Shown piece after piece: positions 42,559-63,692 of a DNA stretch of 64,000 nt. Source of the DNA: Saccostrea echinata (lineage: Eukaryota); assembly GCF_033153115.1 (NCBI RefSeq), contig NW_026889750.1, forward strand, positions 36,270,001 to 36,334,000, in the 5' to 3' direction. Both the position numbers and the translations under genes were made by a program. Numbering within the stretch: the first letter of the stretch is position 1; each line of letters begins with the position of its first letter. The notes beneath the pieces are model-generated. The model saw only the letters and a list, made by a program, of their open reading frames with translations. It was not told the origin of the DNA and ran no database searches.

Positions 42559-43881
42559 CTAATAAGAACAAAGGCATGGTTTTCCCTGCAAAATAAAAAA
42601 TTTCCATTCAGTTAATAAAATATTAAAAATTGATTTTTTGTCAGTTCAATTCCAAGTATTTTCACGAGACTTACCAGTGGTCTCTCGCAGACGTAATTGT
42701 TAACCTGTCCACAGCTGTCAACGTGCCAGTGATATTTGTATGATCTCCAGAAGATACCGCAATTGTAGTCCCCATGTTCATGATAAATTGGTTCCTGACT
42801 GTACCAATCAAATTTGTGGCATGGCTTGACGGTGAATCCCCAGCACCACCTATGTTTGTTTGGTCTCAAAACGTCATTTAAAGCCAACCAGGCTCCTCTC
42901 CTGTCTGCATTGCATACGTGTAAATAATTATAGATTATTATAGATTTAATAAGTGATCATAGAGATTTCGTATTTGAAATATTCTATTTATGACGTAACG
43001 ACTTACATCCATAGATACTGCACATGTGTCTGACGTAGGTGTTTTCGTGGGATTGGTCAATGGATACCAGGTATCCTCCCATGGCAACACATCTCATCTG
43101 CGATAAAATAAACAAAACTTGAAACCGCCGGTTAGACTAAAATCTGTTAGATTGTGCATGATGTAAAATAAAAAGAATACGGTTTAAATATACATGATCT
43201 AGACTTTACATGTTATATGTGTCTTTGAAAAAGATTATTGAGATTCTCCATAGAACAATTGACAAGAATAAGGTACAATTTACTTACAGAAGCCCTGTAC
43301 CAGTTAAGTTTGTCCCTGCTGAACCAGTAACAACGTTTGTTGTACTGATGCCATCCATAAGGACAACCACCAGAAACAACTCTGGCTGCAGCGTACTTAA
43401 AGGCCCTATACCTTGGTGCATTGCCGTAACTGGCCTCAGATACTTTAAAAAGTGAAAAAATAATGTCACAAATAATAATGTTTTTGTAAATAATTGTATA
43501 GTAGGGTTTTAAGTAGAAATAATTGTTGTTACTCAAGCTGTAATTTTCATGTGTATTTTTTGAGTGACGTATGGTGAGAATTATCTAGTTTTTTAATTTT
43601 AAATAACCATTGCATTCTGAACCTTTGACTTTTTCCCAAAATCAGGATGATATAAAACTTTCAATGTTTTCTCTATTTATCTCTTTTTATTTAGACTGTA
43701 CATAAGAAAGGGATTTTGAAATAAATAAATAAAAAAAAAAAAGCACAATTCATTGTTTGATCATATTTTTTTCAACTTCGGCAATAATCGATTATGATAT
43801 TTTTTCAAGAAATCTGGCAGATGAATACATACCAGCTAGGAATGTGGAAACCAGCAAAAGCAAGGCGATAAGTGTGTTCAT
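42559..43881 (-). CDS. Secreted C-type lectin-domain protein, subfamily A copy 1 (perlucin-like), 183 aa
   Basis: Exons (minus): 43881-43833 (MNTLIALLLLVSTFLA), 43442-43288 (..GGCPYGWHQYNKRCYWFSRDKLNWYRAS), 43097-43007 (MRCVAMGGYLVSIDQSHENTYVR..), 42904-42675 (..GAWLALND..EPIYHEHGDYNCGIFW..WHVDSCGQVNNYVCERPL), 42585-42559 (GKPCLCSY*). Introns are GT-AG and in frame, AATAAA follows the stop, and the Cys pattern is long-form CTLD. Confidence 0.92.
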
Positions 43882-44263
43882 GATTGAAGCTTTTCTCAAT
43901 GTCCAATCACACTTCTCATCGTGTATATATACTGAATACAAAAAGAATCAATATCTCATCATTTATTCATACGAACAGTTGCTTAACACAGTGAGACGAA
44001 CGCCTCTTTCCAGCTTCTTCATTATGAACATTAGTTTCCATGTTTGCTTTTCTATACAGTCATCATACGTTTATAACATCTAATCGTCTTAAGATACAAA
44101 AAACAGATGTCAGAATTGTTTTATACATCAGTAATGCATAAAATACCCAAAATCGGACAACTAAAGGGTGTTCCAAAAATACTTAAGGAATGTGCTGAGC
44201 ATTCAGAAGAATTTTATATATAGGAAGGATTGTTGACTTTGTTTGGAGTACTCTCAAGTCACC
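43882..44263. promoter_or_regulatory. Bidirectional promoter of the A1/B1 lectin pair (382 bp between start codons)
   Basis: Divergent ATGs at 43881 and 44264. TATA-like TATATATA at about 43924-43931 (A1 side) and about 44215-44222 (B1 side). Confidence 0.7.
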
Positions 44264-45803
44264 ATGAACGCCTTCCTTGCACTCTGTCTTCTCGTTAGTG
44301 TAATTGCTGGTAAATTATTTCTCAAAATTGCTTCGTTCGATAGTTGAATACATTCAATAATTTTACCGTTTGCCCAAGCTTTATTTTAATTTCTTTTCAG
44401 TTGAAGGCAGCTATGACTATGCTCCCAAATACAGCAGTTTTGGATATGTTGCCGCCAAGATCGCTAAAGGGACCTGTCCTTATGGTTGGAGTTTGTATCA
44501 TGGGAGCTGTTATTATTTTAGCAGAGATAGACTGTCATGGTGGCAGGCTTCTGTAATTATAGCTGATCATTACTTACATTATTTTAAAACGATAGAATTG
44601 TTTTAATATTAATTAATACATAGGACTTGGGAGTATGCTGAACAGAGGATATATAACGTGAGATAATCAGCATTTGATAAGAATTCTTGATACGCTTTTT
44701 CCTTTTTTCTCTGAAATGTTTCAGATGAAATGTGCTTCTATGGGAGGATTTTTATGCAATGTTGACGAAGCCCATGAAAACACATATATCAGACATCACC
44801 TTGCTATGTACGGAGGTACGTTCACAATGACACACCAAAACGGTGTTTTACATTTTAAAAAAAAATGCTTATAATGAAGATAAAGTATTGAATTTTAACA
44901 GCAATGTGACAAATTTTGTACTTTTTATTTTCTAAAGGAAATCGATTTATTCTAAAATGCTGATATCTATTTCTCTCAATTTTTCAATAGTTCTGAAGAA
45001 ATTAGCATATTGTTTCCATGAATCCTAGAAAACGTTCTTATCTAGTGCATAAATAAGAACGATTAATATAACCTGTTTTGTTTTATTGTATCTATTTTGT
45101 TTCATAAACAAAACAATTTAGTCGCCCGCGTGGCGCAGTGGTTTGAGAGTTTGCTCTAGAGTCGCGGTGTAAAGAGTTGATCTTTACGTCGCAGGTTCGA
45201 ATCCCATTACGGGACGAGGAGACCGGTGGTTCTTCGGATGAGACCGTATAAACTGAGGTCCCAGAAGATGCTGACACGAAAAAGATCCCTCACTGCTCAA
45301 TGGCCCTGAGTGCCGAATATAGGTCTAAATTTGCTACCCTCCACCAGCAATTGGTGGCATCTCCACCAATTCTCGATAGGGACGTTAAACAACAAAGAAA
45401 CAATTGAGTAACTCGAGTATTTAAACTATTATATACTTACAGTAACTCCTGGAGCATGGATGGCCCTGAACGACTGTCTTTACCCCAACGCTCACAGATG
45501 GAGCTGGGGATTCACAAAGAGGCGATGTCACAAGTTTGATTGGTACGGTAACGAGCCCGTGTACCATAAAAAGGGAGACTGGAATTGTGGAGCTTTCTGG
45601 TCCAGTTACAAATATCACTGGCATGTCGATAGCTGTGCTCAGAGAAACTACTACGTCTGTGAAATGAAATTGGTAATTTCTTCATTATTTATAGAAGCCG
45701 GAGATGATTTAATAGTAATTGCATGAAGGATTCAATATTGAGTAACATCTATTTATACATTATTTTTTTTGTACAGGGAAAACCATGCAGATGCCAGTAT
45801 TAA
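44264..45803 (+). CDS. Secreted C-type lectin-domain protein, subfamily B copy 1 (perlucin-like), 181 aa
   Basis: Exons: 44264-44309 (MNAFLALCLLVSVIA), 44401-44552 (..GTCPYGWSLYHGSCYYFSRDRLSWWQAS), 44725-44815 (MKCASMGGFLCNVDEAHENTYIR..), 45443-45672 (..GAWMALNDC..EPVYHKKGDWNCGAFW..WHVDSCAQRNYYVCEMKL), 45777-45803 (GKPCRCQY*). AATAAA at 45821. Confidence 0.92.
45121..45400 (+). mobile_element. tRNA-derived SINE (Deu/Nin-like central domain) in lectin B1 intron 3
   Basis: A box TGGCGCAGTGG, B box GGTTCGAATCCC, core ttcggatgagaccgtataaactgaggtccc, tail gggacgttaaacaacaaagaaacaa. Confidence 0.85.
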
Positions 45804-46254
45804 TTCATTGTGGATTTCTTAATAAATGTTTAAACAAGAATTATTTCTCATTGTTAATTAATGCTGTGTTTATTTTACTGAGTCTTTTGACAAACAACCA
45901 TGAATATGTTAAAGAATATAGTTAATAAGAGAAGATTCATTTATTTCAATACAACTCAAATTCAATGATAAAGGAAATGCTGAGAACGTTCTTTATCAAG
46001 AGCTTGTTTCAAAATGCACCAGGCCAGTCTTGAATATTCCGATGGGAAAAAAAACATCAATGCATCAGACCAGTTGGGATATCTCAGTGGAAAACCATTA
46101 AGAATCTCCTTGTTTAAAATGGATCACAGACCAATAAGATTGGGATTGGTTTTAGTCTTTATAAAAAAAAGCTCATCGATATCATTTCTGGTCAATGAAT
46201 TTAGGTTGAATGTAATTCACTACTCATACTTAGATCATTTAATTTCTATTACAA

Positions 46255-46540
46255 TACAATGATCTTGTCAGCACATACAAGCTATCATTGAGTCAAATGC
46301 TGACTGACGTTTTTCATACTAATTGTTGAGCCATTCCATTATTTATGCACTGAACTGTCTACGGATTTTCCTGTTTTTTTCCCGATCATGACAAGGAGCA
46401 CACGGCGGGTGTGACCGGTCGGCAGGGGATGCTCACTCCTCCATGGCACCTGATCCCACCTCTAAATTTTGAGGTCCGTGTTTGCTCTACTCCAAATTTG
46501 TATCATTTCATTGGACTGTTCATTATCTTCATATTTCATT
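46255..46540 (+). mobile_element. 3'-end fragment of the Penelope-like family
   Basis: aaatgctgactgacgtttttcatactaattg..cacggcgggtgtgaccggtcggcaggggatgctcactcctccatggcacctgatcccacct. Confidence 0.75.
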
Positions 46541-48471
46541 CTAGTCAATGCATGTAGTATGTAAGAATGGGAATCTTTTCATAGACTTCAACAATGTAGC
46601 TTTATATTGTTAACGCATTTTGAGTTTATCTCGAAATTTTTTTTATATATTTTTCTTTATTTTTCATTGTAATGATAATGTCTATAGTATTAATTCTCTT
46701 CTTAATGCGCGAGTATATTACAACACACTTCCTAGGAAATGATAAAAAAAAATGTCATTGATGTATACCAATTATATACTGTAAACTAACTTTTATTCGC
46801 GTGCGAGAAGTATCCGCGAGTTCTGCGACCTTCTTTTACTCGGGAATAACACTAAATCCACTGAATTGATACAATTCTAAGGTATCAAATTAATCAAAAG
46901 TATATAAAACACAAATCCATCCCAGCTCATTGCAGACAAAAATACCTGTTTCGAGTAAAATAGAGGGAATAATTCTTGTCCTCGAAGAAAGTATGCTACA
47001 CTGAGGTATAGTTTCGCTTGACTGCGTTTTAGTTACAAAAAAATACGATTTGCCTTTTCTTTTGAATTAATGTCTTTATATAAAAAAATTAATATGCATC
47101 AAACAGAGTTAATTGAAGGAAAATACACAAATCCGATAAGAAAAAATTAAGCAATTAAAACAGATTTTGAAAGGCGAGAATTTAAAACTGGAAAAGTGTG
47201 ACACCAAGTGGATTCGAACCACGACTCTAAAAGTAACTTCGGCACCATGAGCCAGCGGTCTTTTATTTTTAACATCTTTTAAGAGCCAGCGGTCAAACTT
47301 TCTGAGCTAATCTGATCATATAACAAATGGTTACATATATAAATACGAACCAAGTTTCCTTATTTTTTATAGGTTTCTTTTCTTGTTATTTTCGACCCAA
47401 CGACAGGTGTGCCCTTTAGAAAAAAATCCATTTCAAATTATTTCTTACATCCTACCAAAATATCATAATTTTATTTGGGGACAGGCCTGCCTTAAGGATG
47501 CTCCTTATGGTCAATTCTTTTGAATTTCCGAATACATTCTTTCTGCAGTAGAAAACCAGGGATTAATGAACTAGAGGCTGTGTTGACATACATTTTGTAG
47601 ATCATACATAACTGTCTATTTTCATTTTAGTTCATTTATTTTCACTAAAAGTAAGTTTATTTAATGTCTTGTATATATAAGATAGATGTAAAATGGATCT
47701 GTAATATTATTTAAGAATAAGCATTTGAAACAATGTCCTTAATAAAAGATGTATGTATTGAATATTATTTTGTACAAATGTGCCTTGTTTACACTACATT
47801 CTGGACTCAATCTGTCAACTGTTAGAGCGACACAAACTGATAACACCTTCATATACAATTACATCAGAATAAATTGGAAGTAAACATGAAACGAAATTTC
47901 CTGTTATCAAATAGATACAAAATATTGAAAAGATTGAGTTCACACAATAGTCACTTCTAGTCAATTCTATTATAAGTATACAATGCGATAAGAAATTTTC
48001 TTTATGAATTAATATTGATAGTGGTCGATGGTCGGGGGAGGGGGTGTGGCTAGAATATGATAAATCTGTTGTTTTTCTGTACCACAGTGTAGGTATTAGT
48101 ATACTCTTGTATTAATTTCTTTCGTGTTAGAGTAGTTAAGTGTGTTCTTGAAAACTTCTATACTTCAATCACAGTCCAGATACTCCTATACCTTTTTCTT
48201 GTATTATCACCAAAACATAATAGGTGGTTATATCAATAGCAATCTAACTATAAAATTGATAAAAGTCTGAAAAGCTTATGGCAGTGTGTTAAAGTTAAAA
48301 AAATATTTTTCTGTCATCCTTGAGCATTGATTCATTTATTTTCCACACAATCACATCCATAACATGCGAAAGCCTGTAAGTATCAAACAAAAAAAAATAA
48401 ACGCCCATTATCTCGTAATAACGAGATAATTATCTCGTGACTACGAGGAAATTATCTCGTAATTTCGATAT

Positions 48472-48609
48472 CAGGTTCCGGGGCCATGAAACTTAGACGA
48501 GCTCATTTTTGATCTCAGTCTCACTTTTCCACTATTAATTAATTCCTTTGGTAAAAGTGAGACTGAGATCAAAAGTGAACTCGTCTAAGTTTTATGGCCC
48601 CGGAGCCTG
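48472..48609. mobile_element. 138-bp palindromic MITE nested in a 22-bp tandem-repeat element (about 48405-48665)
   Basis: CAGGTTCCGGGGCCATGAAACTTAGACGAG...CTCGTCTAAGTTTTATGGCCCCGGAGCCTG with AT on both sides, interrupting an attatctcgtaataacgagata array. Confidence 0.8.
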
Positions 48610-48719
48610 ATCTCGAAATTAAGAGAAAAGATCTCGTTATTATGAGAAAATTATCTCTTAGTTACAATGTACAGAAAAATATACACGTACGTAAGCTTTT
48701 CTCTTTCCGTCCTTCTTTT

Positions 48720-48724
<5 letters not shown>

Positions 48725-48771
<47 letters not shown>
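48725..48771. repeat. Poly-T tract (about 47 nt)
   Basis: Seen directly in the sequence. Confidence 0.9.
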
Positions 48772-48772
<1 letters not shown>

Positions 48773-51137
48773 ATAATTGCAGGTCGAGGAAATCAAGATT
48801 TATTGAAGCAATCTTTTCTACAATGACTTCCACTGGCAGATAAAACGGAATGTTGGAATGAGTGTCCTCCTAAAATAATTTTATATACTAAGAAAGGCAC
48901 GAGCAAGGACTTAATGCTTTAGGTGTAGGTAGATTAAATTCTAAATGAATTCCTCAGGGTAGGAATCTCTAACCTACCCAAGTAACCGTTTATCAAGTCG
49001 TAAAAAATAATTTAAAAGCCTTGATTTGCATGAGTGAGTACAAAAATACTGTTCTACTATACTACATTTTGCAATTAAAATACTTCTTAAAGAACGAAGA
49101 GAAAATACTTTTTAAAGAACCGGACGTTATTTTTATTTTTTTTTTTACTTGATACTAATACACATGTAGTTAATAATAACAGCTACATGTATATAACGAC
49201 GTCCATTTTGATAATAAAACTAAGAATCATTTTTAAGAATCTTCAGACAGGTCAAGTTTACCTTGCTGTGACAAAATATCATAAGATTATGGTCTAGTAA
49301 TATTTTGACTGAAATTAAACGTAACTTAATAATGTAACCGATAGAAGTAAATTAATAATTGCTGCAGAATATACAGTAAGTGGCACCTCCAATGTTTATT
49401 TCGCCTGCGTGCTCACTTATATGACAACAGTTTGATCAACAATGGCTTCTACAATTTATGCATTTTCACTATATGATCAGAGCCCCAACCTAACTCCAGA
49501 ACCCCTGACCCTGAGGCCTTAAATTTTCAACTAAATTTTATCAGCAGACCAGTGTTCAGAACTGTTCAACAGAAATACTGACAAATCTAATGTAACAATT
49601 TTCAGTAGAATCTCCCCTTGGATGGCATTTGGGGATCGAACATGTAAACCTACAAGTAGTATATCCTCGTGTGTAAAATTGTAAATATAACCACCTTTGT
49701 TTGATAAATAAAATTTTCATTCGTCTCTAGGAATGTTCATTTGAACAACTTCTCAAAAATTTATTGCAGTGAGCCCGTCCAGTAAAAGAAGACAAACCTA
49801 TCTTTTTAAAATTTCGTGTTGATACTTATATGTTGATATTTTATGTTCTATCCTCAAAGCTTTCTTTATAAATTAAAAACAAATTGTTCAGACAAAACTG
49901 AATAAATGATTACCTCCTATTATATAATAATATGATTATTTCGTTTCCTTTACGTCTGCTGTAATTAAAACAGCATTAGCATTTTGTCATTATTTCTTTT
50001 TCCTTTGCTTAGTTAACACCTGCTTTAAAAAGGTGAACGAAACATGCATTTTTCAAAAGTAGGAAACCATTTGACCTCCATAAAATTTTTAGGAATAGCT
50101 GTTCCACTAAAAACATTTCTTTTAAAAAATGACAGAAATTTGCTTTTTATCAATATACACTGTGTACTTGTGTACTGTAAAAGAAACAAATTGTAAGTAA
50201 TTAACCTATAAAATAAAAGAAGTTTTACGTGATTGCAGTCATGAGAAAAATTGTTTGTTGACGATATTTTTGTTTTAATCTCTACCTGGGACCTGTAATT
50301 CATTTTCTTTAAAATGATATTTCCAGATAATGTATCAAATGAAAACATCTGGCGAGTAAATTTTTATATTTTAAGTATATTATCAATTTTCTCCTTCAGT
50401 GTTATTAATCTTATTTGAAGAGAACTTTTTAAACAATATAGATACAAAAATTTAGTGACAAACGTATGGAAAATTATGAAGCCCATAAAATCACGTATGT
50501 GGGGCTTAGATAACATTACATTAATTCCACAAGATATGTTGAATAAAAAGTTACTATTATTCTGTATACCCTGATCAGGAAACACCAATGTACATGTACA
50601 TATATTTTCTTTCAATGTCAATAGACAAGAAAAAATAAGGAAACCCATGAAACATGCCCGAGAAATCAGACATTGCTAATTTTGCAGAGCAGATGTCACA
50701 CAAGTTCTTCATGCATCGTCACCATAATCAAAACTGAAGTCGAAATAATTATTAACTTTCACCTAATTTACAATGTTTCTTTAATGCTATAATTTGATAG
50801 ATAACGGCAAAAGATAGACATACCAACTCACAGTGCTCAACGATGATTTATTTAATATCATTAAAGAATTACAGGACAATTGTGATAACTACATGGTATT
50901 TAAACTGTGATTAACACTTCAAATCTGACCAATTACCCCGCGATCTCAATAAGGAGAGTCATAATTACCGCCAAATCAGCTTATATAGATATGTGAAAAA
51001 AACGTTACATTATCAACGTTTATGCAGAAGTTTCTTTTTTAAAATGAATTTATATATTATACATATATTTTATTTTTTCCGACTAACCGATTACAGATTT
51101 TCTAACCGATTTCTGTCCTTCCGACCAAGTAACCGGT

Positions 51138-51272
51138 NNNNNNNNNNNNNNNNNNNNNNNNNNNNNNNNNNNNNNNNNNNNNNNNNNNNNNNNNNNNNNN
51201 NNNNNNNNNNNNNNNNNNNNNNNNNNNNNNNNNNNNNNNNNNNNNNNNNNNNNNNNNNNNNNNNNNNNNNNN
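51138..51272. other. Assembly gap (N run), preceded by hAT-type subterminal motifs (taaccga)
   Basis: Run of n. ccgactaaccgattacagattttctaaccgattt..taaccggt lies at 51079-51137. Confidence 1.
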
Positions 51273-51424
51273 TGTATTTGATTGGACTCCGAAGAGTGTA
51301 GCAGTTATCTCGAATTTCACGTAAGTATTAAAAAATCCTGATTTTGGTAAATAGAAATGTATAAGCGTAAGCGTTAGTTAGCAAACATTTTTATTCAATA
51401 CCTACATTTATATATCTATAAAAA

Positions 51425-52674
51425 TCAGTACTGGCATTTACAAGGTTTTCCCTGAAACAAAAATTTAAAAAAATATTAACTTTCTTTATTCAATTAAAAG
51501 CCAATATCAATTCAGAATACTCAAGATAACTAAATACTCGAACAATGAAATTACCTTCAGTTTAAAGAAAGTCCTCTTTAAATCAAACACTGGTATTTAA
51601 CATATTAAATAAAAATTTACCAATTTCATTTCACAGACGTAGTAGTTTCTCTGAGCACAACTATCGACATGCCAGTGATATTTGTAACTGGACCAAAAAG
51701 CTCCACAATTCCAGTCTCCTGTTTTATGGTACACAGGCTCGTTTCCGTACCAATCAAACTTGTGACATCGCCTCTTTGTGAATCCCCAGCTCCATCTGTG
51801 AGCGTTAGGGTAGAGACAGTCGTTCAGAGCCATCCAAGCTCCAGGAGTTACTGTAATTATAATTAGTTAAAAGACTCGTATATGGTATCTGTAGAATGGC
51901 ATGCATATCAACAACATGAGGTTAAAGACAACAGCTTGAAACAATTCCCAGTTGCATTACATGAAAAGTTGAACAGAAATGTGAACTTTTGTTGGAGATC
52001 CAAATCTTTTGGTATTATTTGGAACAATGCGCCCTCGTAAAACAAATCCCTAATAGCTAATTTTGTCCTCGACCTACCTCCATACATAGCAAGGTGATGT
52101 CTGATATATGTGTTTTCATGGGCCTCGTCAACATTGCATAAAAATCCTCCCATAGAAGCACATTTCATCTGAAATGTTAAGTAAAATTCCGTGACTTGTA
52201 ATAACTGTAGAAAATCAACAAAACTCTTACGTAAATATAATTCACATATGACTTTTTGGGAATATATCAAGATGATCAAGATTAAACTTTAATAAGACTA
52301 GAAGGAAGAGGGTATATTTTTCTATTTCTAAGGCTTGATAATTGTGCTAGTATAATCAAGCTGATATTTACGGAGGCCTGCCACCATGACAGTCTATCTC
52401 TGCTAAAATAATAACAGCTCCCATGATACAAACTCCAGCCATAAGGACAAGTCCCTTTAGCGATCTTGGCAGCAACATATCCAAAACTGCTGTATTTGGG
52501 AGCATAGTCATAACTGCTTTCAACTGTAACTAAAAAATAATAATGAAAAAAAAATTAAAATAAAAAATAATTAAATTATTTGAATAAATAAAAACTCATT
52601 TTCTATTCCCCTTTGTCACTATTATTACCTATCGTTACAGAAACCACGAGTGTTAAGATAAGTAAACAATTCAT
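51425..52674 (-). CDS. Secreted C-type lectin-domain protein, subfamily B copy 2, 181 aa
   Basis: Exons (minus): 52674-52629 (MNCLLILTLVVSVTI), 52523-52372, 52168-52078, 51850-51621, 51451-51425 (GKPCKCQY*). Same exon sizes as B1 (46/152/91/230/27), GT-AG introns, intact frame. Confidence 0.92.
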
Positions 52675-53017
52675 GACTGTAGCTAGCAGCATATTGCTAA
52701 TTGTTCATATTATGTTCTTTTTATAAGTTTGTATCCTTTTCCTACATATGTGAAATGTAAATATTCACGCCTTTTTCGTGTCAAAAACATGCCAGAAAAC
52801 TGCATTTGTGCTGATCCAAGGGAAAGTAATCAAGCACATTGCATGTATTGAACTACGAACAGATATGTATGATATCAGGGCGGGAAATGATCCCTTGTTA
52901 ATGTGATATTATAACGTAGAACACAAATATTATTGTACTTGTTCAAATATGATTGTATAGAGTATATATACCGAGGACAGTTTTGGAAACCAGTAGATTA
53001 CTAAAATCAGCCCCAGC
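52675..53017. promoter_or_regulatory. Bidirectional promoter of the B2/A2 lectin pair (343 bp)
   Basis: Divergent ATGs at 52674 and 53018. TATAAAA (minus) at about 52719-52725, TATATATA at 52963-52970, GC-box CAGGGCGGGAA at 52876-52886, ATATTCACGCC at 52761. Confidence 0.72.
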
Positions 53018-54195
53018 ATGAATGCAGTGGTTTTTGCTTGTCTTTTGCTCTCAGCAACACTCGCTGGTAAGTTAAGCATCACATTAATTCCAGTATTTAC
53101 TTTAAAAGTTCATATTAGTTAATCAATACCAATGTGTGATATCATGACATTTTTATAAGAAAATGTATTAATTCAATGCTACTGAACTCGCTACAAAATA
53201 TTCCAAAATCTTAAGTTAGCTTAAATAACAAATAAAGAATTATTTTATTTTATAAATATTTCAAATAAAAATAATCTCTCAGTATATATATTTCAACAAA
53301 ATTTTCAACCTTGCAGTCTCACAAGCCAGCTATAATATAAGGCCAAGGTACAGGGCCTTTAAGTACGCTGCTGCCAGAGTTGTTGCTGGTGGTTGTCCTT
53401 ATGGATGGCATCAGTACAACAAACGTTGTTACTGGTTCAGCAGGGACAAACTTAACTGGTACAGGGCTTCTGTAAGTAAATTGTACCTAACTATTGCCCT
53501 TTGTTTAAACCGAGAATCCCCTTTAAAGACAACTTAAACAAGAAGAAAATAGAAATTGTATATTTAAACTTATTTTTTTGAATTAAATGCAATCCAGTAC
53601 CCCTCGGATTAACAAGCGAGTTTAAGTTTTGTTTACTTAATGTAGATGAGATGTGTTGCCATGGGAGGATACCTGGTATCCATTGACCAATCCCACGAAA
53701 ACACCTACGTAAGACACATGTGCAGTATCTATGGATGTAAGTCGTTACGTCATAAGAAGACTATTTCAAATACGAAATCTCTTTGATCACGATGAGTACT
53801 TATTAAATCTATAATAATCTATAATTATTTACACGTATGCAATGCAGACAGGAGAGGAGCCTGGTTGGCTTTAAATGACGTTCTGAGACCAAACAAACAT
53901 AGGTGGTGCTGGGGATTCACCGTCAAGCCATGCCACAAATTTGACTGGTACGGTCAGGAACCAATTTATCATGAACATGGGGACTACAATTGCGGTATCT
54001 TCTGGAGATCATACAAATACCACTGGCACGTTGACAGTTGTGGACAGGTTAACAATTACATCTGCGAGAGACCACTGGTAAGTTTCATGAATATACCTGG
54101 AATTAAACTGACAAAAAATATCAAATGTGAATATTTTATTTACTGAATGGAAATTTTCTATTTTGCAGGGAAAACCATGCCACTGTTCTTATTAG
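53018..54195 (+). CDS. Secreted C-type lectin-domain protein, subfamily A copy 2, 183 aa
   Basis: Exons: 53018-53066 (MNAVVFACLLLSATLA), 53317-53471, 53646-53736, 53848-54077, 54169-54195 (GKPCHCSY*). Same exon sizes as A1 (49/155/91/230/27). AATAAA follows the stop. Confidence 0.92.
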
Positions 54196-54639
54196 CAATA
54201 TTTCTAAAATAAAGATTTGTTCTACTTGATACCGTGTTCTGTGGATATGTCAGTCAGCAAATATGTCAATTATATATTTTCATCATAATAACAACGTGTA
54301 AAGAAAGATTTTTGGGGACATTACTTATGAAGTTACTTCAACTTCAAACTGTTTCTCTAGATTTAAAATTATTTCAAGAATACCAGCCCATATAAAGCCT
54401 ACTGATAGCGATTCAAGAAATTCTGTCGTAGTTATAACCTCACGGTGCTATAGAAATACTACAATTCTATTCTAGAAATTTATTGTTTATTTTTATATTT
54501 CCGTCTATTCCAAAGTTTGTTTGACATTATCTTTTATGTCCAGTAAAAAATATGTTGTCTCTCCCCCACCCCCCTTTCCCCGATGGGAAAAAAGTCTTAC
54601 TGGTATCAGCATTGATATACATGTACATGTATGTCATAA

Positions 54640-54755
54640 ATGAAATATGGAGATAACGAACAGTAATCAAGCTCAAAAGTCCACTGAAATAAAACAAATA
54701 GGGAGCAGAGCAAGCACGGACCTCTAAAAGCATCAGAGGTGAGATCAGGTGCCAA
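54640..54755 (-). mobile_element. Short 3'-end fragment of the Penelope-like family
   Basis: ggagataacgaacagtaatcaagctc..gggagcagagcaagcacggacctc..gtgagatcaggtgcc is the reverse complement of the family end. Confidence 0.65.
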
Positions 54756-55250
54756 TCGACATTTTTCGCTTTAATCAATGCGAAATAGATATTTTTTTTG
54801 CTCGAGATAATTAAGCTTTTTAATCTGAAGAGTTTTCTAACAAAGAGTCATAAAAACCAATTCTTCAATTCTATGGGTGTATTGAAATCATTTCTACTGA
54901 AAAAGAGTGGTTTTTCGAATAATTGTATTTTAATTGAATTGAATCTACAAATATTTTTGTATTTGATTGGTATATAGTATGTCAATGTTGCACCATTAAT
55001 TTACGATAGTTTGTCTTTTTTTCTTGCATTTACAGAGTATTCAAAAATAAATAAATAAAAAAAAATGAAAGAAAGAAAGAGCTGGCTATGACTTTACGAT
55101 GAAATGCATCGGTCGAAAAGGAAGAAACAGTTTTATTTTGATTTAGACCTGCTAGTATTTTTTCACAGCAGATTCAGCACGAACGAAGAGAGATAAGTCA
55201 AGTGTGCAAACCTATTTTAAAATAGAAATTAAATGACGAATTCTATGGAA

Positions 55251-55589
55251 TGGTTGTTTCTATGTTGTTTAACGTCCCATTCGAGGATCTTTCACTCATA
55301 TAGAGACGTTACCTGTTTGCCGGTGAAGAGCTTCATATTTAGACTTATACTCGGCACTGTACACGGGCCATTGAACAGTGAGGGAGCTTTATCATGCCAA
55401 TGCCCACCGTGAAACGGGACCTCGGGTTTTAAGGTCTCATCCGAACGACCCGTGACTTTCATTTCTAGTGCCGAGCGCTTGGCGAAGGAACTATCTATGT
55501 TTACGTCTTAGGTTTGACGCGAACGAGAATCGAACTCGGGTCTCCCAATCACGAAGCGAGCGCCCTACCACTAGGCTACCGTGAACGGT
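55251..55589 (-). mobile_element. tRNA-derived SINE (same family as 45121-45400)
   Basis: Minus strand: GGTAGCCTAGTGG A box, GAGTTCGATTC B box, cggatgagaccttaaaacccgaggtcccg core, gggacgttaaacaaca tail. Confidence 0.85.
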
Positions 55590-56010
55590 GCAAATTCTAT
55601 GGAAGAAGCAGACAGACCTTGGGCGACAACCGGTATTCTCAAGTATCGTACAGGCAAACCTCCATCCCGATATCTTGTTATTGTCATATAAAAGCAAGAA
55701 GATCATGATGGTGAAACTTACTGTTAACTCGGAAGAAAGATGTGAGGATGCCTACGAGAGAAAGAAAACAAATACATGTACTGGGATCTGACAGATGAAA
55801 TACACAGAAAAGGATGGAGCGCATGGGTATTTCTCTATGGGGATTGGCTGTAGAGGATTCCCAGCACAACCAATCTAGAGAGCCATTACAGTCCTGGGAA
55901 TCACAGGAAGGGACAAAAGATGAGGAATACAAAGACCAACAAACACAGCATAGAAGCCATCATACTGGCTGTGGAGAAAAAGAGCAGACTAGAACTGGAA
56001 ACCATTCATA
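55590..56010 (+). mobile_element. Decayed C-terminal restriction-like endonuclease of a non-LTR retrotransposon (HERO/NeSL/R2-group)
   Basis: ORF 55588-55791 DLGRQPVFSSIVQANLHPDILLLS..K..MVKLTVNSEERCEDAYERKK, then frameshifted GW..GIGCRGFPAQ..LGITG. This matches the LRPD...ELTVPWE....A.ERK..KY...VGCRGF RLE signature. Confidence 0.7.
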
Positions 56011-56119
56011 GATGGACAGTAATTTAGCCAATCACAGGTTATAGATCGAAGCAACCGATGACGAGTGGAGCTGAGGTTTTTTCTGTCTTTCTCTCTGAAA
56101 GCTCAATTTGAAATAGGTA

Positions 56120-56310
56120 GCACCTGTTCCTTCGCCAAGCACTCGCACTTTGAAGTGAAATTGCAGGTCTTTCGGATGAGGTCTAAAAAAACCAAGGCAA
56201 CGTGTCATGGCAATCTAAAGAACCCTCACTCCTCAAATGCTACATGTGCCAAGTAAAAGCCTAAACATAATCCCTTTAACAGTATTTGGTGACGTCTTAT
56301 ACGAGTGAAA
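56120..56310 (+). mobile_element. 5'-truncated SINE fragment
   Basis: tgttccttcgccaagcactcgcac..ggtctttcggatgag..aagaaccctcactcctcaa matches the SINE core. Confidence 0.6.
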
Positions 56311-56313
56311 TAA

Positions 56314-56316
<3 letters not shown>

Positions 56317-56400
<84 letters not shown>
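56317..56400. repeat. (TA)n microsatellite
   Basis: About 42 TA units. Confidence 0.97.
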
Positions 56401-56403
<3 letters not shown>

Positions 56404-56771
56404 AGAATAAGTTCAGGTTTGGAGCAAAACCAAAACTAAAGGCTGTTGAAATTTAAAAAAAAAACTTTTTAAAACAAGGAATTACATGTAACACTTAAGG
56501 GACAGGACAGCTTGAGGAGGGGGGGGGGGGTTAGTACCCTCATTTCTTGGTAGTTGTACCAGATATAATCGCAATGTTTCAAATTCACAAAATAAATGCT
56601 ACAAAATAAACATACATTTTTCCCAGTACAATTATATTCTAATTAGTTTTGTAGTAGTTTTAAAGTAAAATATAATTGGTTTACCTGATTTTTTTTCTAA
56701 ATATACTCAAGTATTTTTCTGGAAGAAAAATAATTAGTATTACGTATGATTGCGTATATCTATTATTTTAT

Positions 56772-57276
56772 TGGACTTTTGCGAGAAGCACTGACTTTTA
56801 CACTCGACGGCTTACTTTGACATTTAAACATGTGTCATGTACGGAGGTACGGACTTGATATTAGATCAGAAAACCTTAGTAGTAGTCATAGGTATGGTGT
56901 TAGGGGCACTTACATGATTTACTTGTATGCAATCAACACAAGAGATGATGGGAGGAAGAATAACATAACTTAAAATACCTTATTCGTGAGGGATAGTATT
57001 TCCTTTCAATCTCATTTTATGAAAGAATCAAATAAGGAAAAAATACAATCGAAATGAAAACTTGGCAGTAGTTGGTCAAATGGGGAAGGAGGGGGGTTAG
57101 TATAGGGTGTTTCTCTTTCCCCTCCCTAGAAAAACGTAGTATGTTCTTTGAAATGAATTATTATCGTTTAATTATTTGATAAGCTAAATATTTATATCGA
57201 AAAGAGTTGCTGTATATTGTCCCAGTGTAAAAGTAAGCCGTCGAATGTAAAAGTCAGCGCTTCTCGCAGAAGTCCA
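56772..57276. mobile_element. MITE with TIRs of about 50 bp
   Basis: tggacttttgcgagaagcactgacttttacactcgacggcttactttgaca pairs with tgtaaaagtaagccgtcgaatgtaaaagtcagcgcttctcgcagaagtcca. Confidence 0.8.
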
Positions 57277-58744
57277 TTATGAAATTAAAGTGTGGATAGA
57301 GATATGATAATTACATGCAGTTTCGAAATTGGAATTATTGAAATCTCATGTAGTTAAATTGAATGGTTATAGAAAATATATCGATAGAAACTATCCCGGA
57401 CAATGTAGACGTGTAATTTCTTTTAGTTCCCATTCTCGCCTTTGCATGTTACTTCTTATTTTGAAACTATGAGTGGATAAGGCACAATGTTTTATGCGAA
57501 ATATAAGCGTTCAATAATGGAAAAGGAATACCTGGTATATTTTGTTTTGAAAATTTGCTTTTCAATGAAAATTTTCCAAATTATATCCTAATTATAACGA
57601 AGCATTGTTTTTATTGTTTACTTTAAAGATAATATTTATCAGAGAATGATATGATGTGCAAATATATTTGGCACGACACAAATTTGCCTCTCTTTGAGAA
57701 ATGTTTCTTTATAGTTTACAGGATTTATCCATTGTCATTTGCTATCTTTACATTTGGCAGATTGTTATCGATAACATTAATATTAATATATTCAGATGTG
57801 TTTGACAATGTGCTTTAAATTCGAATACTTTATAGAAATAACATGTGCAAATTCCCAGAGTAATTACTAATACTTAGAGAACCTTTTTAAAATTTTAATA
57901 GAGGAATACTTTGAAGACTGAAAGCACAGTTGATTAGAGGACATTTTAAATCCGGAATGACATTTAAAAAATACAGAAAAATTCATATTTATCTTTTGTT
58001 TTATTTCATAAGGATCAAAGAAGACACGTGTAAATATTTCTCTTACGGTTATAATGAAGCACTGAATTCATATTTTTCGAGATGCATTGTTTCATAACAT
58101 GCTAAGACACATTATTCAATTTTTCAGGACAGTCGTCCAAGTTATGAAGCAAAGCATGTTAAAAATTTTAATTTAATGCTTATATTTATATTATCTGATC
58201 ACATTTTAATGGATAAAATTTACCTTTATTTTTTTTAATTACATTAAACAGCCAATCTGTTTTGTATGCAAATAGTATAGAATCGTGAGGAATGGTGTTT
58301 TAAATCTCCCACTCATATGACATTGTTTTTTAACAAATGTTTCTCGACGAATTAGATTCAACTTATTTATATGAAAGTATGATATAATAAAATATGACCT
58401 CAAGGCACTGCGAACTTGAGCTTGTACAGGAACATATAGTACAATTTTTAATTTAAAATAGAGGAAAAATTTAATTTTTTTTTATTTCACATTTACCATA
58501 GTGATAAGAAAGAAAAAACAAATTTGGATGAAAGCTTAAAAACTGAAAAATTCCATCAATTGGGATTTATTAAAGATAACTCCAACATGGTTAATATTTT
58601 GTTCACTGATTGCTTTATAATGATTCTTTTTTTTTTACATTAATAACAAATACTTCCTATGTAGCTGAATAGTAAACTTCAAAACCAAATGAAATCGAGA
58701 ATAAAATATTGATGCAAAAGTTTATTTAAAATAGTTAGTGATGA

Positions 58745-61179
58745 TTAATATTGGCACCTGCAAGGTTTTCCCTGAAAAATAAAGAGAAAATGCAGTTACT
58801 CTTTGTAAACAATTTCAGTTTGATATTTAAAAGGTTTTTACATTTAAATTTCAATAAGCGGAAAAAGAATTCTCTTCCTGTTGATTTTGAGATGTTAGAT
58901 AATTGTTTGTGTTTCAAATAAAAAAAAAGCATTAAGATGCATTTTACCAATTTCATTTCACAGACGTAGTAGTTTCTCTGAGCACAGCTATCGACATGCC
59001 AGTGATATTTGTAACTGGACCAGAAAGCTCCGCAATTCCAGTCTCCCTTTTTATGGTACACGGGCTCGTTACCGTACCAATCAAACTTGTGGCATCGCCT
59101 CTTTGTGAATCCCCAGCTCCATCTGTGAGCATTAGGGTAAAGGCAGTCGTTCAGGGCCATCCAAGCTCCAGGGGTGACTACCATTGGAATGATATACAAT
59201 TTAAGTAAAACAAAAAGAATTCCAATGCTTGGTAAATATAACATTTCAATTGCTTCTTCACACTCTAAAAAGATAGATATATGCATTCTCTTTCAAATAA
59301 AAAAAAGATACAATAAAAGGAAAATTTGCTAATTACATTTTTTTGTTTCGCTTATCATTTGTGAAAGGTTATCTTACTTTTAAAATTGTGAGTAATTTGT
59401 TATCTTACCTCCATACATAGCAAGGTGGTGCCTGATATATGTGTTTTCGTGAGCCTCGTCAACATTGCATAAAAATCCTCCCATAGAAGCACATTTCATC
59501 TGAAAGAATACATGGCTCCGATATTTACAAATCAAATACTTTCTCTAATTGCAATGCAAAAAAAGAATACAGTGAACTGTTATGATATAAAATTACACTA
59601 CGGTAATTTTCAAAACAATAAAATCTCGACATGTAATTTCGAAACCTGTGCTACTACTGATATAATTATATGACAAATTCATCTCTTTATTCATAACAAA
59701 TTGCTGATCCAATTACTGCAGGTAAACATCAAATATAGTATATCCTCTGATAAAACATAAACTAAAACAAGTTTTCTACCACTTGACCAATAATTTAGCT
59801 AAAATAACATAATTATTTACCGACGCTTGCCACCATGACAGTCTATCTCTGCTGAAATAATAACAGCTCCCATGATACAAACTCCAGCCGTATGGACAGG
59901 TCCCTTTAGCGATCTTGGCGGCAACATATCCAAAACTGCTGTACTTAGGAGCATAGTCATAGCTGCCTTCAACTGTAATTGAAAAAAAAAATAAAATTAT
60001 ACCTTTATATATTCAAATGCTACTGAATACTAGTATAGTACCGGAAACTATCTCCGAGTACGAAAATAAGCATCAGTATTAAAGTAGATGTTTTGGAGGA
60101 AAAAATTCTTCCTCTTTCCCTAATTATGACTCAAACGACAGACGACCAATATTATATAAATGCTATGCCATGATTAAAAATATCAGGAACTGAATATTCT
60201 TAGTAATGTTAAAGATTTGTATCTTTATTACAAAGATCCTCGCCTACTGACTTAGGCTATTGAGATATAAGTAGACTCAAGGGTACAAATACTTTAAGCT
60301 TTAATTGATGGAAAACTGCAAAATAATGTTTAAATCTCGTACTTATAAGAAATCAAGAAACGATATATCGTAATTTGAATCAAGGTTATATTCTTTCAAA
60401 AGTCAAAGTCAGTGGGCGATGAGATAATGAAGGTATAAAGTAATTCATTCTCAAATTTTGGGGTTTATATGATTTTGATAACGATGATGATGATTGAATA
60501 ATTAATTGTATGTTGTTTAACGTCCCATTCGAGAATTTTTCACTCATATAGAGACGTCACCATATACCGGTGAAGGGCTTCAAATTTTGACCTTTACTCG
60601 GCACTTAGGGCCATTGAGCAGTGAGAGATCTTTAGCGTGCCAACGCCTGCCGTGACATGGGGCCTCGGTTTTTAAGGTCTCATCCGAAGGACCCGCAACA
60701 CTTTCACTTCAAAGCGGCGAGCGCATGGCGAGGGAACAGTTGCTACCCATTTTTTATCGACTTAGGTCAGTCGCGGCCGAACTCACGACCTCCCGATCAA
60801 GACGATGATAATGAAAGTATAATGCAATAATTCTTTATTCAATCTTTTTACTTTAATAATTCTGTTACTAATGATTAAAATGCTAATGAAAATATTCCGT
60901 CTCTTATATGCAGGAAACTATTGAATTTATCATATTTTAGATTTATTTTAGGACTGGTAGAATACGGCATTGAATAACAAAGTTAATTGGTAACATAACA
61001 ATCACTTGTTCTTATTACTTGTTTTTAATATGGAAATCTAAATTCTAAATTCAGTCTAAAGTCTAAATTTGAATTATGAAGAGTTCGAATCAGAGATAGA
61101 CAGGTCCTTATCCTGTATTTTCTTTTTTCTTACCTGATGCTACAGCCACCAACACTGATATAGCAAGGAAGCAGTTCAT
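58745..61179 (-). CDS. Secreted C-type lectin-domain protein, subfamily B copy 3, 181 aa
   Basis: Exons (minus): 61179-61134 (MNCFLAISVLVAVAS), 59972-59821, 59499-59409, 59177-58948, 58771-58745 (GKPCRCQY*). Exon sizes are identical to B1/B2. Intron 1 is enlarged and contains a SINE. Confidence 0.91.
60495..60801 (-). mobile_element. tRNA-derived SINE in lectin B3 intron 1
   Basis: Same core and tail as the other SINEs (tgttgtttaacgtcccattcgagaa...aaggtctcatccgaagg). Flanked by near-identical acgatgat(g/a)atga at 60481 and 60802 (possible TSD). Confidence 0.85.
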
Positions 61180-61507
61180 GATTGATTCCTACGGTATATA
61201 TTAAATGAATGCAAAGTCATCCCTTATATAAAGTCTTATTTGGATTTGTACGTGAATATACGAGAAGATATTCACGCCCTTTTCATTTCAAAAAGAAAAA
61301 CATGTATGCTTTCGCAAACAACATATTTGCTGATAAAGATGTATGCAAAGCCCTAATAATAATCGAAATGGGAGGTAACAGGGCGGGAATTAAGCTCTTG
61401 TTAAGTTGAAAATTTATTGTAGTACATGACATTTCTTACAAGGGGTGAGAAGTATATATACATCATCAAAGTTCGAAATACCTGTGAGTTACCACGATAA
61501 ATTTAAA
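61180..61507. promoter_or_regulatory. Bidirectional promoter of the B3/A3 lectin pair (328 bp)
   Basis: Divergent ATGs at 61179 and 61508. TTATATAA at about 61224-61231, TATATATA at 61453-61460, CAGGGCGGGAA at 61379-61389 and ATATTCACGCC at 61268. The last two motifs are shared with the B2/A2 spacer. Confidence 0.72.
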
Positions 61508-63388
61508 ATGAACTCAATCGTTCTACTATGTCTTCTGGTCTCATCTATCCTTGCTGGTGGGTAAAGTGTGAGAACGTATTCAAAATCTTTTTTTTCTGTT
61601 AATAATTTCAATCGTTTAAATGTTTATTCTTATTTAGCTCTAGGAACAAGTCTCAAAAGTGTATTAGGGTCAGGAATTGCAGGGGAAATGTTTAAAACAT
61701 TTTACTTATAATACCAATAAAAACAGTTGATTTAAATGAAATAATAAATACACTCTTTTGCAGTCTCACAAGCCAGCTATAACATAAAGCCAAGGTACAG
61801 TGCCTTTAAGTACGCTGCTGCCAGAGTTGTTTCTGGTGGTTGTCCTTACGGATGGCATCAGTACAACAAACGTTGTTACTGGTTCAGCAGGGACCGGTTG
61901 ACTTGGTATAGAGCTTCTGTAAGTGTACTTTCACGTGCTTTAAAATACATCGTCACTGATTAATGCTTGCAAAAGAGTGTCCCTGCTCAAGCTAAAGTAT
62001 ACCAACATTAGGATAAAATGCTTAAAAATAAACACATTTTAGATGAGATGTGCTGCCATGGGAGGATACCTCGTCTCAATTGACCAGTCCCACGAAAACA
62101 CATATGTCAGACACATGTTGAGCGTCTATGGATGTAAGTTTTCCTTTATTTTTTGTTTGATATAACCCAGTGAAATCGAAATAAAAGAAACCACAGAGTC
62201 TGCCACATCTGTTTCATGTTTGTATGTTTAACTGACAAAAGACGATAAGGAACAACTAACAACTTTTTGCATTACAAGCGAGATGACTTCACATTTTCCT
62301 CCGTCAACTTTCCTTATCCTGTGGTAATATCCCGCTATCACCTGCATATGGTGTTTACATCTCCCAACTTATTCGATACACAAGGGCATGCTCTGAGTAC
62401 GATCAATTTTTAAACCGAGGCAGGCTACTTACAGATAAGTTGATGTTACAGGGATTTCAGCAACCTTGTTCAAAGTCAGCATTTCTTAAATTCCATTTTC
62501 TTTATAATGGCCTTGTTAGCAAATATAACCTAACAGTGGGAGGTATTTTGTATTATGTGTTTCATACCAATTGTTAGGCCTCTGTTTTTATACTGAATTT
62601 GACTACGGATTGTTCCGTCGACCTCATCAATACATAGGGCTTATGGTGGCTATGACCGGTCGACAGGGGATTCTTACTCCTTCTTGGCACCCTGATCCCA
62701 ATTCTGGAATTCTGGAAATCTGGGGTCCGTGTTTTATGGCCTGTTCACAGATTTGTATTGTTTTTAGATTTTTTTGAGATCGATCACTGTTCGTTATCTT
62801 CATTTCCTTTGATATACAATAGCAATTCCAACTTTAAAATGTGCTAAAAAGCAGCTTAAATCTAAGTTTTAAAATCGAGAAAAAATTATTTCTGAGATCT
62901 TCTTTAGACAGAAGAGGAGCATGGCTGGCTTTAAATGATATTCTGCGACCAAACAAACATAGATGGTGCTGGGGATTCATTGCAAAACCATGTCACAAAT
63001 TTGACTGGTACGGCCAGGAACCAGTTTACCATACTACTGGTGACTATAATTGTGGTGCATTTTGGAGATCATACAAATACCACTGGCATGTTGATAGCTG
63101 TCAACAGAAAAACTATTACGTATGCGAGAAATCTTTGGTAAGTAATTTAATGGAGTTTAAGACAGTTGATTAAAAGCAAAAGTATATTTAGCTTAATCAG
63201 GATATATTGTGTTGTTCAAATAAAACTAATATTGATACACCTTTAAAACATTTGTTTACTACTATAATTATGTAAATTAACATGATTTTCTAATATATAA
63301 ATGCCTAATATACACGTTATTTACTGATAAATTAAAGAAGATTTTCATCTACTTTTTGCAGGGAAAACCATGTCGTTGTGCATACTAA
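61508..63388 (+). CDS. Secreted C-type lectin-domain protein, subfamily A copy 3, 183 aa
   Basis: Exons: 61508-61556 (MNSIVLLCLLVSSILA), 61764-61918, 62043-62133, 62908-63137, 63362-63388 (GKPCRCAY*). Exon sizes are identical to A1/A2. Intron 3 is enlarged by a Penelope-like fragment. Confidence 0.91.
62160..62805 (+). mobile_element. Penelope-like retroelement 3' fragment in lectin A3 intron 3
   Basis: YPSEIEIKETTESATSVS..KRDDF..VNFPY..NIPLSPAYGVYISQLIRYTRACSEYDQFLNRGRLLTDKLMLQGFQQ, followed by the family 3' end. Confidence 0.85.
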
Positions 63389-63665: not shown

Positions 63666-63692
63666 GGAAAATCTTGCCATTGTGCCTACTGA
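63666..63692 (+). CDS. Duplicated alternative terminal micro-exon of lectin A3 (GKSCHCAY*)
   Basis: ttttttcag|GGA AAA TCT TGC CAT TGT GCC TAC TGA, followed by ATTAAA at 63701. The 3' UTR (aattttgaagcaaaatgcaaa...tttgtacaaaacgtata) duplicates the one after exon 63362-63388. Confidence 0.6.
   Translation, partial: GKSCHCAY

Follow-up and report, generated by a model that had tools for sequence, protein, structure and literature searches.

Two types of lectin-like (CTL) chain, A and B, are encoded by neighbouring genes in the oyster Saccostrea echinata, and both carry cysteines beyond those that a lectin fold needs. The question raised by this locus is whether the extra cysteines join the two chains to one another. 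An earlier note, made from the window analysed here (a stretch of 64,000 nucleotides of contig NW_026889750.1, positions 36,270,001 to 36,334,000), had proposed that they direct covalent A–B pairing and that a shared CxC tail links the pairs into multimers or fibres. The make-up of the oyster larval adhesive is poorly known because the material resists extraction (PMC6193008, PMC6337334). Two 19-kDa chains, A and B, whose cysteines can be mapped would make the question directly testable, with a bearing on wet adhesives, antifouling and settlement in hatcheries. We lean slightly towards a physical assembly of A with B. The reading that we prefer, and hold tentatively, is that the larval byssus or glue contains A and B chains that are produced together and bonded to one another by disulfides, chiefly via the CxC tail. 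If true, a lectin fold has been reused as a structural polymer with its stoichiometry set by gene layout.

Gene models and head-to-head layout

Gene models built within the window comprise six five-exon genes with GT/AG sites throughout and no internal stop. These genes, the divergent regions between them and a stray tail exon are as follows.

42559..43881, minus strand: gene A1; exons 43881-43833, 43442-43288, 43097-43007, 42904-42675, 42585-42559; 183 aa; extra cysteines at 94, 119, 127, 179 and 181
43882..44263, no strand: divergent region between A1 and B1; 383 bp from one start codon to the other; a TATA-like box on each side, 50 and 49 nt ahead of the ATGs
44264..45803, plus strand: gene B1; exons 44264-44309, 44401-44552, 44725-44815, 45443-45672, 45777-45803; 181 aa; extra cysteines at 77, 108, 125, 177 and 179
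51425..52674, minus strand: gene B2; exons 52674-52629, 52523-52372, 52168-52078, 51850-51621, 51451-51425; 181 aa
52675..53017, no strand: divergent region between B2 and A2; 344 bp from one start codon to the other; a TATA-like box on each side, 51 and 55 nt ahead of the ATGs
53018..54195, plus strand: gene A2; exons 53018-53066, 53317-53471, 53646-53736, 53848-54077, 54169-54195; 183 aa; Cys94 present
58745..61179, minus strand: gene B3; exons 61179-61134, 59972-59821, 59499-59409, 59177-58948, 58771-58745; 181 aa
61180..61507, no strand: divergent region between B3 and A3; 329 bp from one start codon to the other; a TATA-like box on each side, 51 and 55 nt ahead of the ATGs
61508..63388, plus strand: gene A3; exons 61508-61556, 61764-61918, 62043-62133, 62908-63137, 63362-63388; 183 aa; Leu at 94, 10 mature cysteines
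63666..63692, plus strand: duplicate of the CxC tail exon, 3' of A3, with an acceptor AG and a similar 3' flank

The models of A1, B1 and B3 match exactly the database proteins P0001, P0059 and P0057 (S. echinata, labelled perlucin-like). The public A2 model (P0024) is the same as ours through exon 4 and then takes a different tail, and the public A3 model (P0063) is fused with a downstream B gene, in conflict with our A3 model. All six oyster species in our alignment have the tail exon in their A and B proteins; its second copy at 63666..63692 is either an orphan or an alternative last exon. In contigs from four public runs of two studies, whose RNA nature is guessed, A1 exons 1-4 and B1 exons 2-4 are spliced at the modelled sites, which supports three introns of A1 and introns 2 and 3 of B1, the last intron not being among the joints listed; none of the matching public runs listed is on record as RNA. 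The encoded chains are secreted, basic and rich in Tyr, His and Cys (11% Tyr, 5-6% His and pI 8.8-9.5), and only about 22 residues, a short stretch containing Y, K and P, precede the CTL domain in A and B.

All five A genes of the locus face a B gene head to head (5/5 pairs), three of these pairs being in the window and the other two A and two B genes, all intact, just outside it. This arrangement, which the earlier note did not mention, lends indirect support to an A–B partnership. Start codons in the five pairs are separated by 383, 344, 329, 316 and 310 bp, and a TATAWAW motif starts 49-59 nt before 10/10 ATGs, against a background of 0.043 per 21-nt window in the first 40 kb. Columns of the intergenic promoter alignment are only 53% identical, yet the spacing is retained. 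All five pairs go back to a single unit, so that they are not independent, and random labels give 5/5 mixed pairs at 32/252; that unit has, however, come through duplication and inversion intact, over a synonymous divergence that reaches a dS of 1.8. Inferred from the DNA, a shared bidirectional promoter with roughly 1:1 output of A and B is probable. Haplotype mis-assembly, considered as a source of the repeats, was ruled out by their inverted orientation, unlike first exons and promoters, and dS reaching values above 1. There is also a tyrosinase gene at a distance of 28 kb.

Selection within each type is strongly purifying, with dN/dS of 0-0.105 in 20/20 within-type comparisons (five A and five B genes); B1 and B3 differ at a dS of 0.42 and at no amino acid over 141 codons. 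Combined with the head-to-head pairing, this supports the co-production of A and B, and the near-zero dN across the whole surface suggests that the chains may make fixed protein–protein contacts. The pair layout is established in this genome. A metagenome scan returned one locus (L013) among 106 candidates, in which an A exon and a B tail are placed tail to tail without a promoter. Fused gene models of the B+B and A+A kind (P0069, P0079, P0030 and P0031) in Magallana and Ostrea, together with blockwise accession order, hint at other layouts there, in blocks of one type.

Kinship with byssal proteins and larval settlement

By the kinship of their CTL domains, judged on a published apfp-1 peptide and on the Pinctada protein P0171, we place A and B as oyster members of the apfp-1/Pmfp1 byssal CTL family. 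The published 22-residue loop peptide of apfp-1 aligns without gaps at 11/22 identical positions in A1, 10/22 in B1 and 18/22 in the Pinctada protein P0171; it reaches 10-12/22 across the A, B and long-type rows, whereas none of 138 other CTL rows exceeds 8. P0171, which matches A1 at an E value of 1.2e-31, was the only close relative beyond oysters in database protein searches, and the ESM Atlas returned generic Lectin_C clusters only. Pmfp1 is named as a byssal homologue in the review PMC12817120. According to PMC4912638, apfp-1 of the pen shell Atrina bears DOPA, and the native protein was extracted with acetic acid, with no reductant listed there, and had monomer mass by MALDI. The long N-terminal Pro/Tyr/Lys repeat region that bears DOPA in apfp-1 is absent from A and B.

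Expression is documented in the Pacific oyster, in which six C. gigas CTL genes, five of them in tandem, are pediveliger-specific and 44-48% identical to apfp-1 (PMC6337334); by the filter of that study, adult organs including mantle remain below 20% of the pediveliger level. Four of the six proteins are high at settlement and then fall (bioRxiv 2020.06.05.137059; supplement rows of PMC7574277). The pediveliger-specific perlucin-like genes CGI_10006917-22 and CGI_10010615 of PMC6337334, published as candidates for the adhesive, are probably orthologous to A, B and the long type, a tie made through names that match our M. gigas hits K1REI9 and K1QBI0, tandem number and apfp-1 likeness. Carried over from these relatives, a larval-foot adhesive role for A and B is likely. 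The larval adhesive contains sulfur, and its fibres withstand urea, guanidine, NaOH and EDTA (PMC6193008). None of the six C. gigas proteins appears in the larval footprint proteome table available from PMC6193008, an absence to be weighed against the fact that the fibres in that study could not be dissolved. The family and its settlement-stage expression are already published; the A/B subtypes, the cysteine code and the head-to-head pairing were not found there or elsewhere in a literature search that covered few subscription papers.

Cysteine pattern of A and B

We aligned 55 rows (43 distinct), comprising 49 database rows and the six window models, selected from 250 fetched proteins after removal of unrelated CTLs and of rows that were truncated, fused, duplicated or exon-only. 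The A rows form one clade (21 rows, six species, support 98/98), and B with the long type forms a weaker group (29 rows, support 92/88). Columns are given in A1 numbering, in which C77, C108 and C125 of B correspond to C79, C110 and C127. The six canonical cysteines and C127 are present in 55/55 rows and the CxC tail in 54/55, the exception being a partial Pinctada model. C119 occurs in 21/21 A rows, in 0/23 B rows and nowhere else; C79 is found in 23/23 B rows only (0/21 A); and C110 is found in 23/23 B and 6/6 long-type rows and in 0/21 A rows, such that exactly one of C110 and C119 is present in 50/50 A, B and long-type rows. C127 stands without either in 5/55 rows and in the apfp-1 peptides, and the paralogue L008 lacks C127, C110 and C119 and retains the tail. 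A and B are both multi-copy in six oyster species, with a fixed cysteine pattern per type.

Against this alignment, the earlier note is borne out in part. Its counts are reproduced, with 11 mature cysteines in A1, A2 and B1-B3, 10 in A3, and GKPCxCxY at the end of all six chains, and a six-frame search recovers every motif that it named (HMCS, RWCW, KPCH, FLCN, NDCL and RRCH). Its claim of subfamily-specific extra cysteines stands for C119 of A and C77 of B; C108 marks all B chains but also 6/6 long paralogues, and KPCH (A127) and RRCH (B125) are one alignment column with Cys in 55/55 rows. Nor is the HMCS cysteine a mark of A: C94 is confined to 3/21 A rows, all Saccostrea, plus the Pinctada row, with Leu in the others. 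Cys94 in A1 and A2 probably reflects a single event, as the 3' halves of these genes were recently homogenised (99% identity in exon 3 and 96% in intron 3, versus 58-68% in the 5' part). The total is even in 18/21 A rows (normally 10) and odd in 23/23 B rows (11). We therefore rejected the odd count as evidence for A pairing, since it is seen in 3/21 A rows through a Saccostrea-only Leu-to-Cys change; by count, a normally even-numbered A chain needs no partner.

These counts also bear on the alternative that fares best, namely that A and B are the same larval-foot proteins without regular inter-chain disulfides. The extra cysteines would then be intrachain, buried, metal-binding or a thiol reserve for oxidised DOPA, and curing would proceed via tyrosinase tanning and His–metal bonds; cysteinyl-DOPA links are known from mussel mfp-6. 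The even count of A in 18/21 rows suits such proteins, as do C77 of B and C94 of A, at positions where other rows have V/A and L, respectively. The composition (11% Tyr, 5-6% His, pI 8.8-9.5) and the tyrosinase gene 28 kb away point the same way, but the odd count of B in 23/23 rows does not, and a CxC bond between residues i and i+2 is strained, and the tail is kept in 54/55 rows. The fixed contacts suggested by a near-zero dN over the surface likewise argue against it. Although apfp-1 was found at monomer mass and bearing DOPA (PMC4912638), we consider this alternative rather unlikely.

Fold and loss of the canonical sugar-site motifs

The chains are long-form CTLDs, scoring 41.6 and 34.9 bits with PF00059 against a cut-off of 22.6. 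Their monomer models are weak (pLDDT 58.9 and 54.8, with loop pLDDT <50). They match the CTLD fold of DC-SIGN, with Z 13.0 and an rmsd of 3.4 over 96 aligned residues (model residues 40-178 versus DC-SIGN 253-384), and the long loop, from the WIGL-like motif to E-P, aligns to that of DC-SIGN without gaps, with W..E-P retained. Non-swapped lectins top both fold searches, in which snaclecs occupy tied lower rows, a ranking obtained with weak models. The EPN region to which the earlier note referred contains no EPN: EPI, EPV or EPA takes its place and the WND position reads WHVD in 50/50 A, B and long-type rows, leaving only the first Glu. With EPN and WND lost, canonical Ca-dependent sugar binding by A and B is unlikely. 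E86 and E172 are invariant and may keep the structural Ca site.

The earlier note had drawn on snaclecs, in which the long loop is domain-swapped and carries the inter-chain disulfide. Applied to A and B, this would give a heterodimer with swapped long loops tied from C119 of A to C108 of B, with tails linking dimers into rings or fibres. The two cysteines are complementary, both lie in the long-loop region and the genes are paired; they sit nine columns apart (110 versus 119), and two registers are possible against the snaclec loop position. In one case, the HMMER alignment with botrocetin alpha stops at A1 117, equivalent to chain position 78 and near the loop Cys of botrocetin. Although snaclecs do assemble in this manner (PMC6468738), the gapless loop match to DC-SIGN and the retained Trp and Pro of a folded-back loop leave the swap unsupported for A and B, as far as sequence and weak models can tell. 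Non-swapped lectins lead the fold searches, long paralogues have C108 without a neighbouring A gene, and the published apfp-1 peptides (PMC4912638) have neither cysteine, so that we regard a snaclec-like heterodimer as quite improbable. Least probable of all, we would place ordinary perlucin-like shell-matrix or immune lectins with an incidental cysteine pattern, for which the database label 'perlucin-like', a transcript peak shortly ahead of metamorphosis, a time at which new shell forms as well, and the absence from footprints (PMC6193008) can be cited, but against which stand the automatic nature of that label, adult organs including mantle at <20% of the pediveliger level (PMC6337334), a strong constraint that seems unlike fast-evolving immune lectins, byssal nearest characterised relatives and the loss of EPN and WND.

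Proposed assembly

In the disulfide-joined reading that we prefer, A and B would be made together in the larval foot, and the byssus or glue used at settlement would contain A–B oligomers with disulfide cross-links. Three canonical bonds would form within each chain, and C127 would find its intrachain partner in C119 (A chains) or C108 (B chains), two cysteines that do not occur together. The mutual exclusion of C110 and C119 fits these as alternative intrachain partners of C127 or as complementary A–B partners. L008, by losing C127, C110 and C119 together while keeping CxC, favours the intrachain wiring, and the rows and apfp-1 peptides with C127 alone indicate that such wiring is not general. 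C77 of B and C94 of A1 and A2, which replace small or hydrophobic core residues, would likely be buried and not act as linkers.

The tail is a better candidate. In DC-SIGN, an N-terminal and a C-terminal cysteine are bonded together; A and B chains have no Cys ahead of C43, so the CxC tail at the N/C pole is without an intrachain N-terminal partner, a situation that fits inter-chain bonds as in convulxin or the clam lectin SPL-1. In convulxin and flavocetin, dimers are joined through terminal cysteines located at this pole (PMC6468738). Inter-chain disulfides are thus plausible from the residues present, and the tail would bond between chains, probably during or after secretion; the monomer mass of apfp-1 after acid extraction likewise implies that any polymer would arise no earlier than secretion. 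An extended form of this assembly is unlikely as a whole: a two-subunit glue fibre, in which bidirectional promoters give A and B at 1:1, heterodimers form, CxC tails polymerise by disulfide exchange on secretion, and long, cysteine-rich or Lys/Arg/Tyr-rich paralogues with the same domain and tail co-polymerise as branch or surface units.

Comparison with known systems

The snaclecs convulxin, botrocetin and IX/X-bp resemble A and B in having two related CTL chains, lost EPN and WND motifs, extra loop cysteines and terminal cysteines at the N/C pole. Their identity to A and B is 22-25%, they are unrelated in origin and role, and A and B give no sign of a swapped index-finger loop. SPL-1 of Saxidomus purpuratus offers a bivalve example of an A/B CTL heterodimer, with inter-chain bonds from the terminal Cys2 and Cys4 and a non-canonical sugar site (PMC12842671, PMC10377782); however, it is a soluble lectin of 16% identity, and its cysteine pair is N-terminal, while that of A and B is C-terminal. 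For the C. gigas genes, PMC6337334 proposes sugar binding to the periostracum, but A and B have lost the canonical site-2 motifs; the A/B subtypes, cysteine pattern, CxC tail and gene pairing are not noted in its available text. Closest is apfp-1, which, in its published peptides and description, shares the CTL subfamily, a gapless long-loop match including the invariant C127, a secreted, basic, Tyr-rich character and a short stretch containing Y, K and P before the domain. In contrast to apfp-1, A and B lack the long DOPA repeat region, and its peptides lack C110 and C119. It has been studied as a single chain, whereas A and B constitute two fixed subtypes encoded in head-to-head gene pairs.

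Gene-conversion-like tracts in A lectin genes and motifs in A/B promoters

A1 and A2 (window 42559-43097 vs 53646-54195) share 89-99% identity from exon 3 to exon 5, introns included, and the A genes A4 and A5 beyond the window (L001 6818-6026 vs L002 6172-5375) share 92-99% from exon 2 to exon 4. Promoters and first exons are unlike within each pair, and both stretches appear gene-conversion-like. Two boxes, CAGGGCGGGAA and TATTCACGCC, are common to the B2/A2 and B3/A3 promoters only (window 52760-52885 and 61270-61395) and are candidate regulatory sites.

Intron 3 of B1 contains a high-copy, SINE-like repeat (window 45120-45404) that is covered by very many contigs. By eye, elements resembling it lie near window 55280-55590 and 60510-60800.

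Duplicated and decayed copies

Window 63666-63692, + strand: copy of the exon encoding the C-terminal cysteine pair (CxC tail), acceptor and 3' flank included, 300 bp behind A3
L001 4687-4823, + strand: decayed exon 4 remnant with a stop, between A3 and A4
G000:C16:11950192-11950413 (L011/L012): family member whose exon 4 carries an in-frame TGA; one of its introns is 5 kb long

The duplicate CxC exon could supply an alternative tail, and the L011/L012 member is probably a pseudogene.

Paralogues and a tyrosinase gene

Five paralogues at L004-L010 (G000:C12:13.34-13.37 Mb and 16.40 Mb) combine a domain as in A/B and a CxC tail with differing N-terminal parts:

Two (P0006, P0048): long Cys-rich, Gly-rich region
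One (P0248): short acidic/Gly leader
One: S. cucullata counterpart (P0131) with a long Lys/Arg/Tyr-rich region

The fifth lacks C127, the extra cysteine otherwise found family-wide (A1 numbering).

Window about 14290-10783, - strand: secreted-type tyrosinase gene (PF00264, E 7e-10)

This gene lies 28 kb from A1 and is the only one of 27 tyrosinase matches in the genome on this contig; it is a candidate DOPA-forming partner.

Fused public gene models

A public S. echinata model joins the 5' half of A3 to the 3' half of B4, and a C. virginica model is a fusion of the same kind, with its 5' half from A and its 3' half from B (models P0063, P0061). These fusions are probably annotation errors, and the C. 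virginica model hints at a similar gene order.
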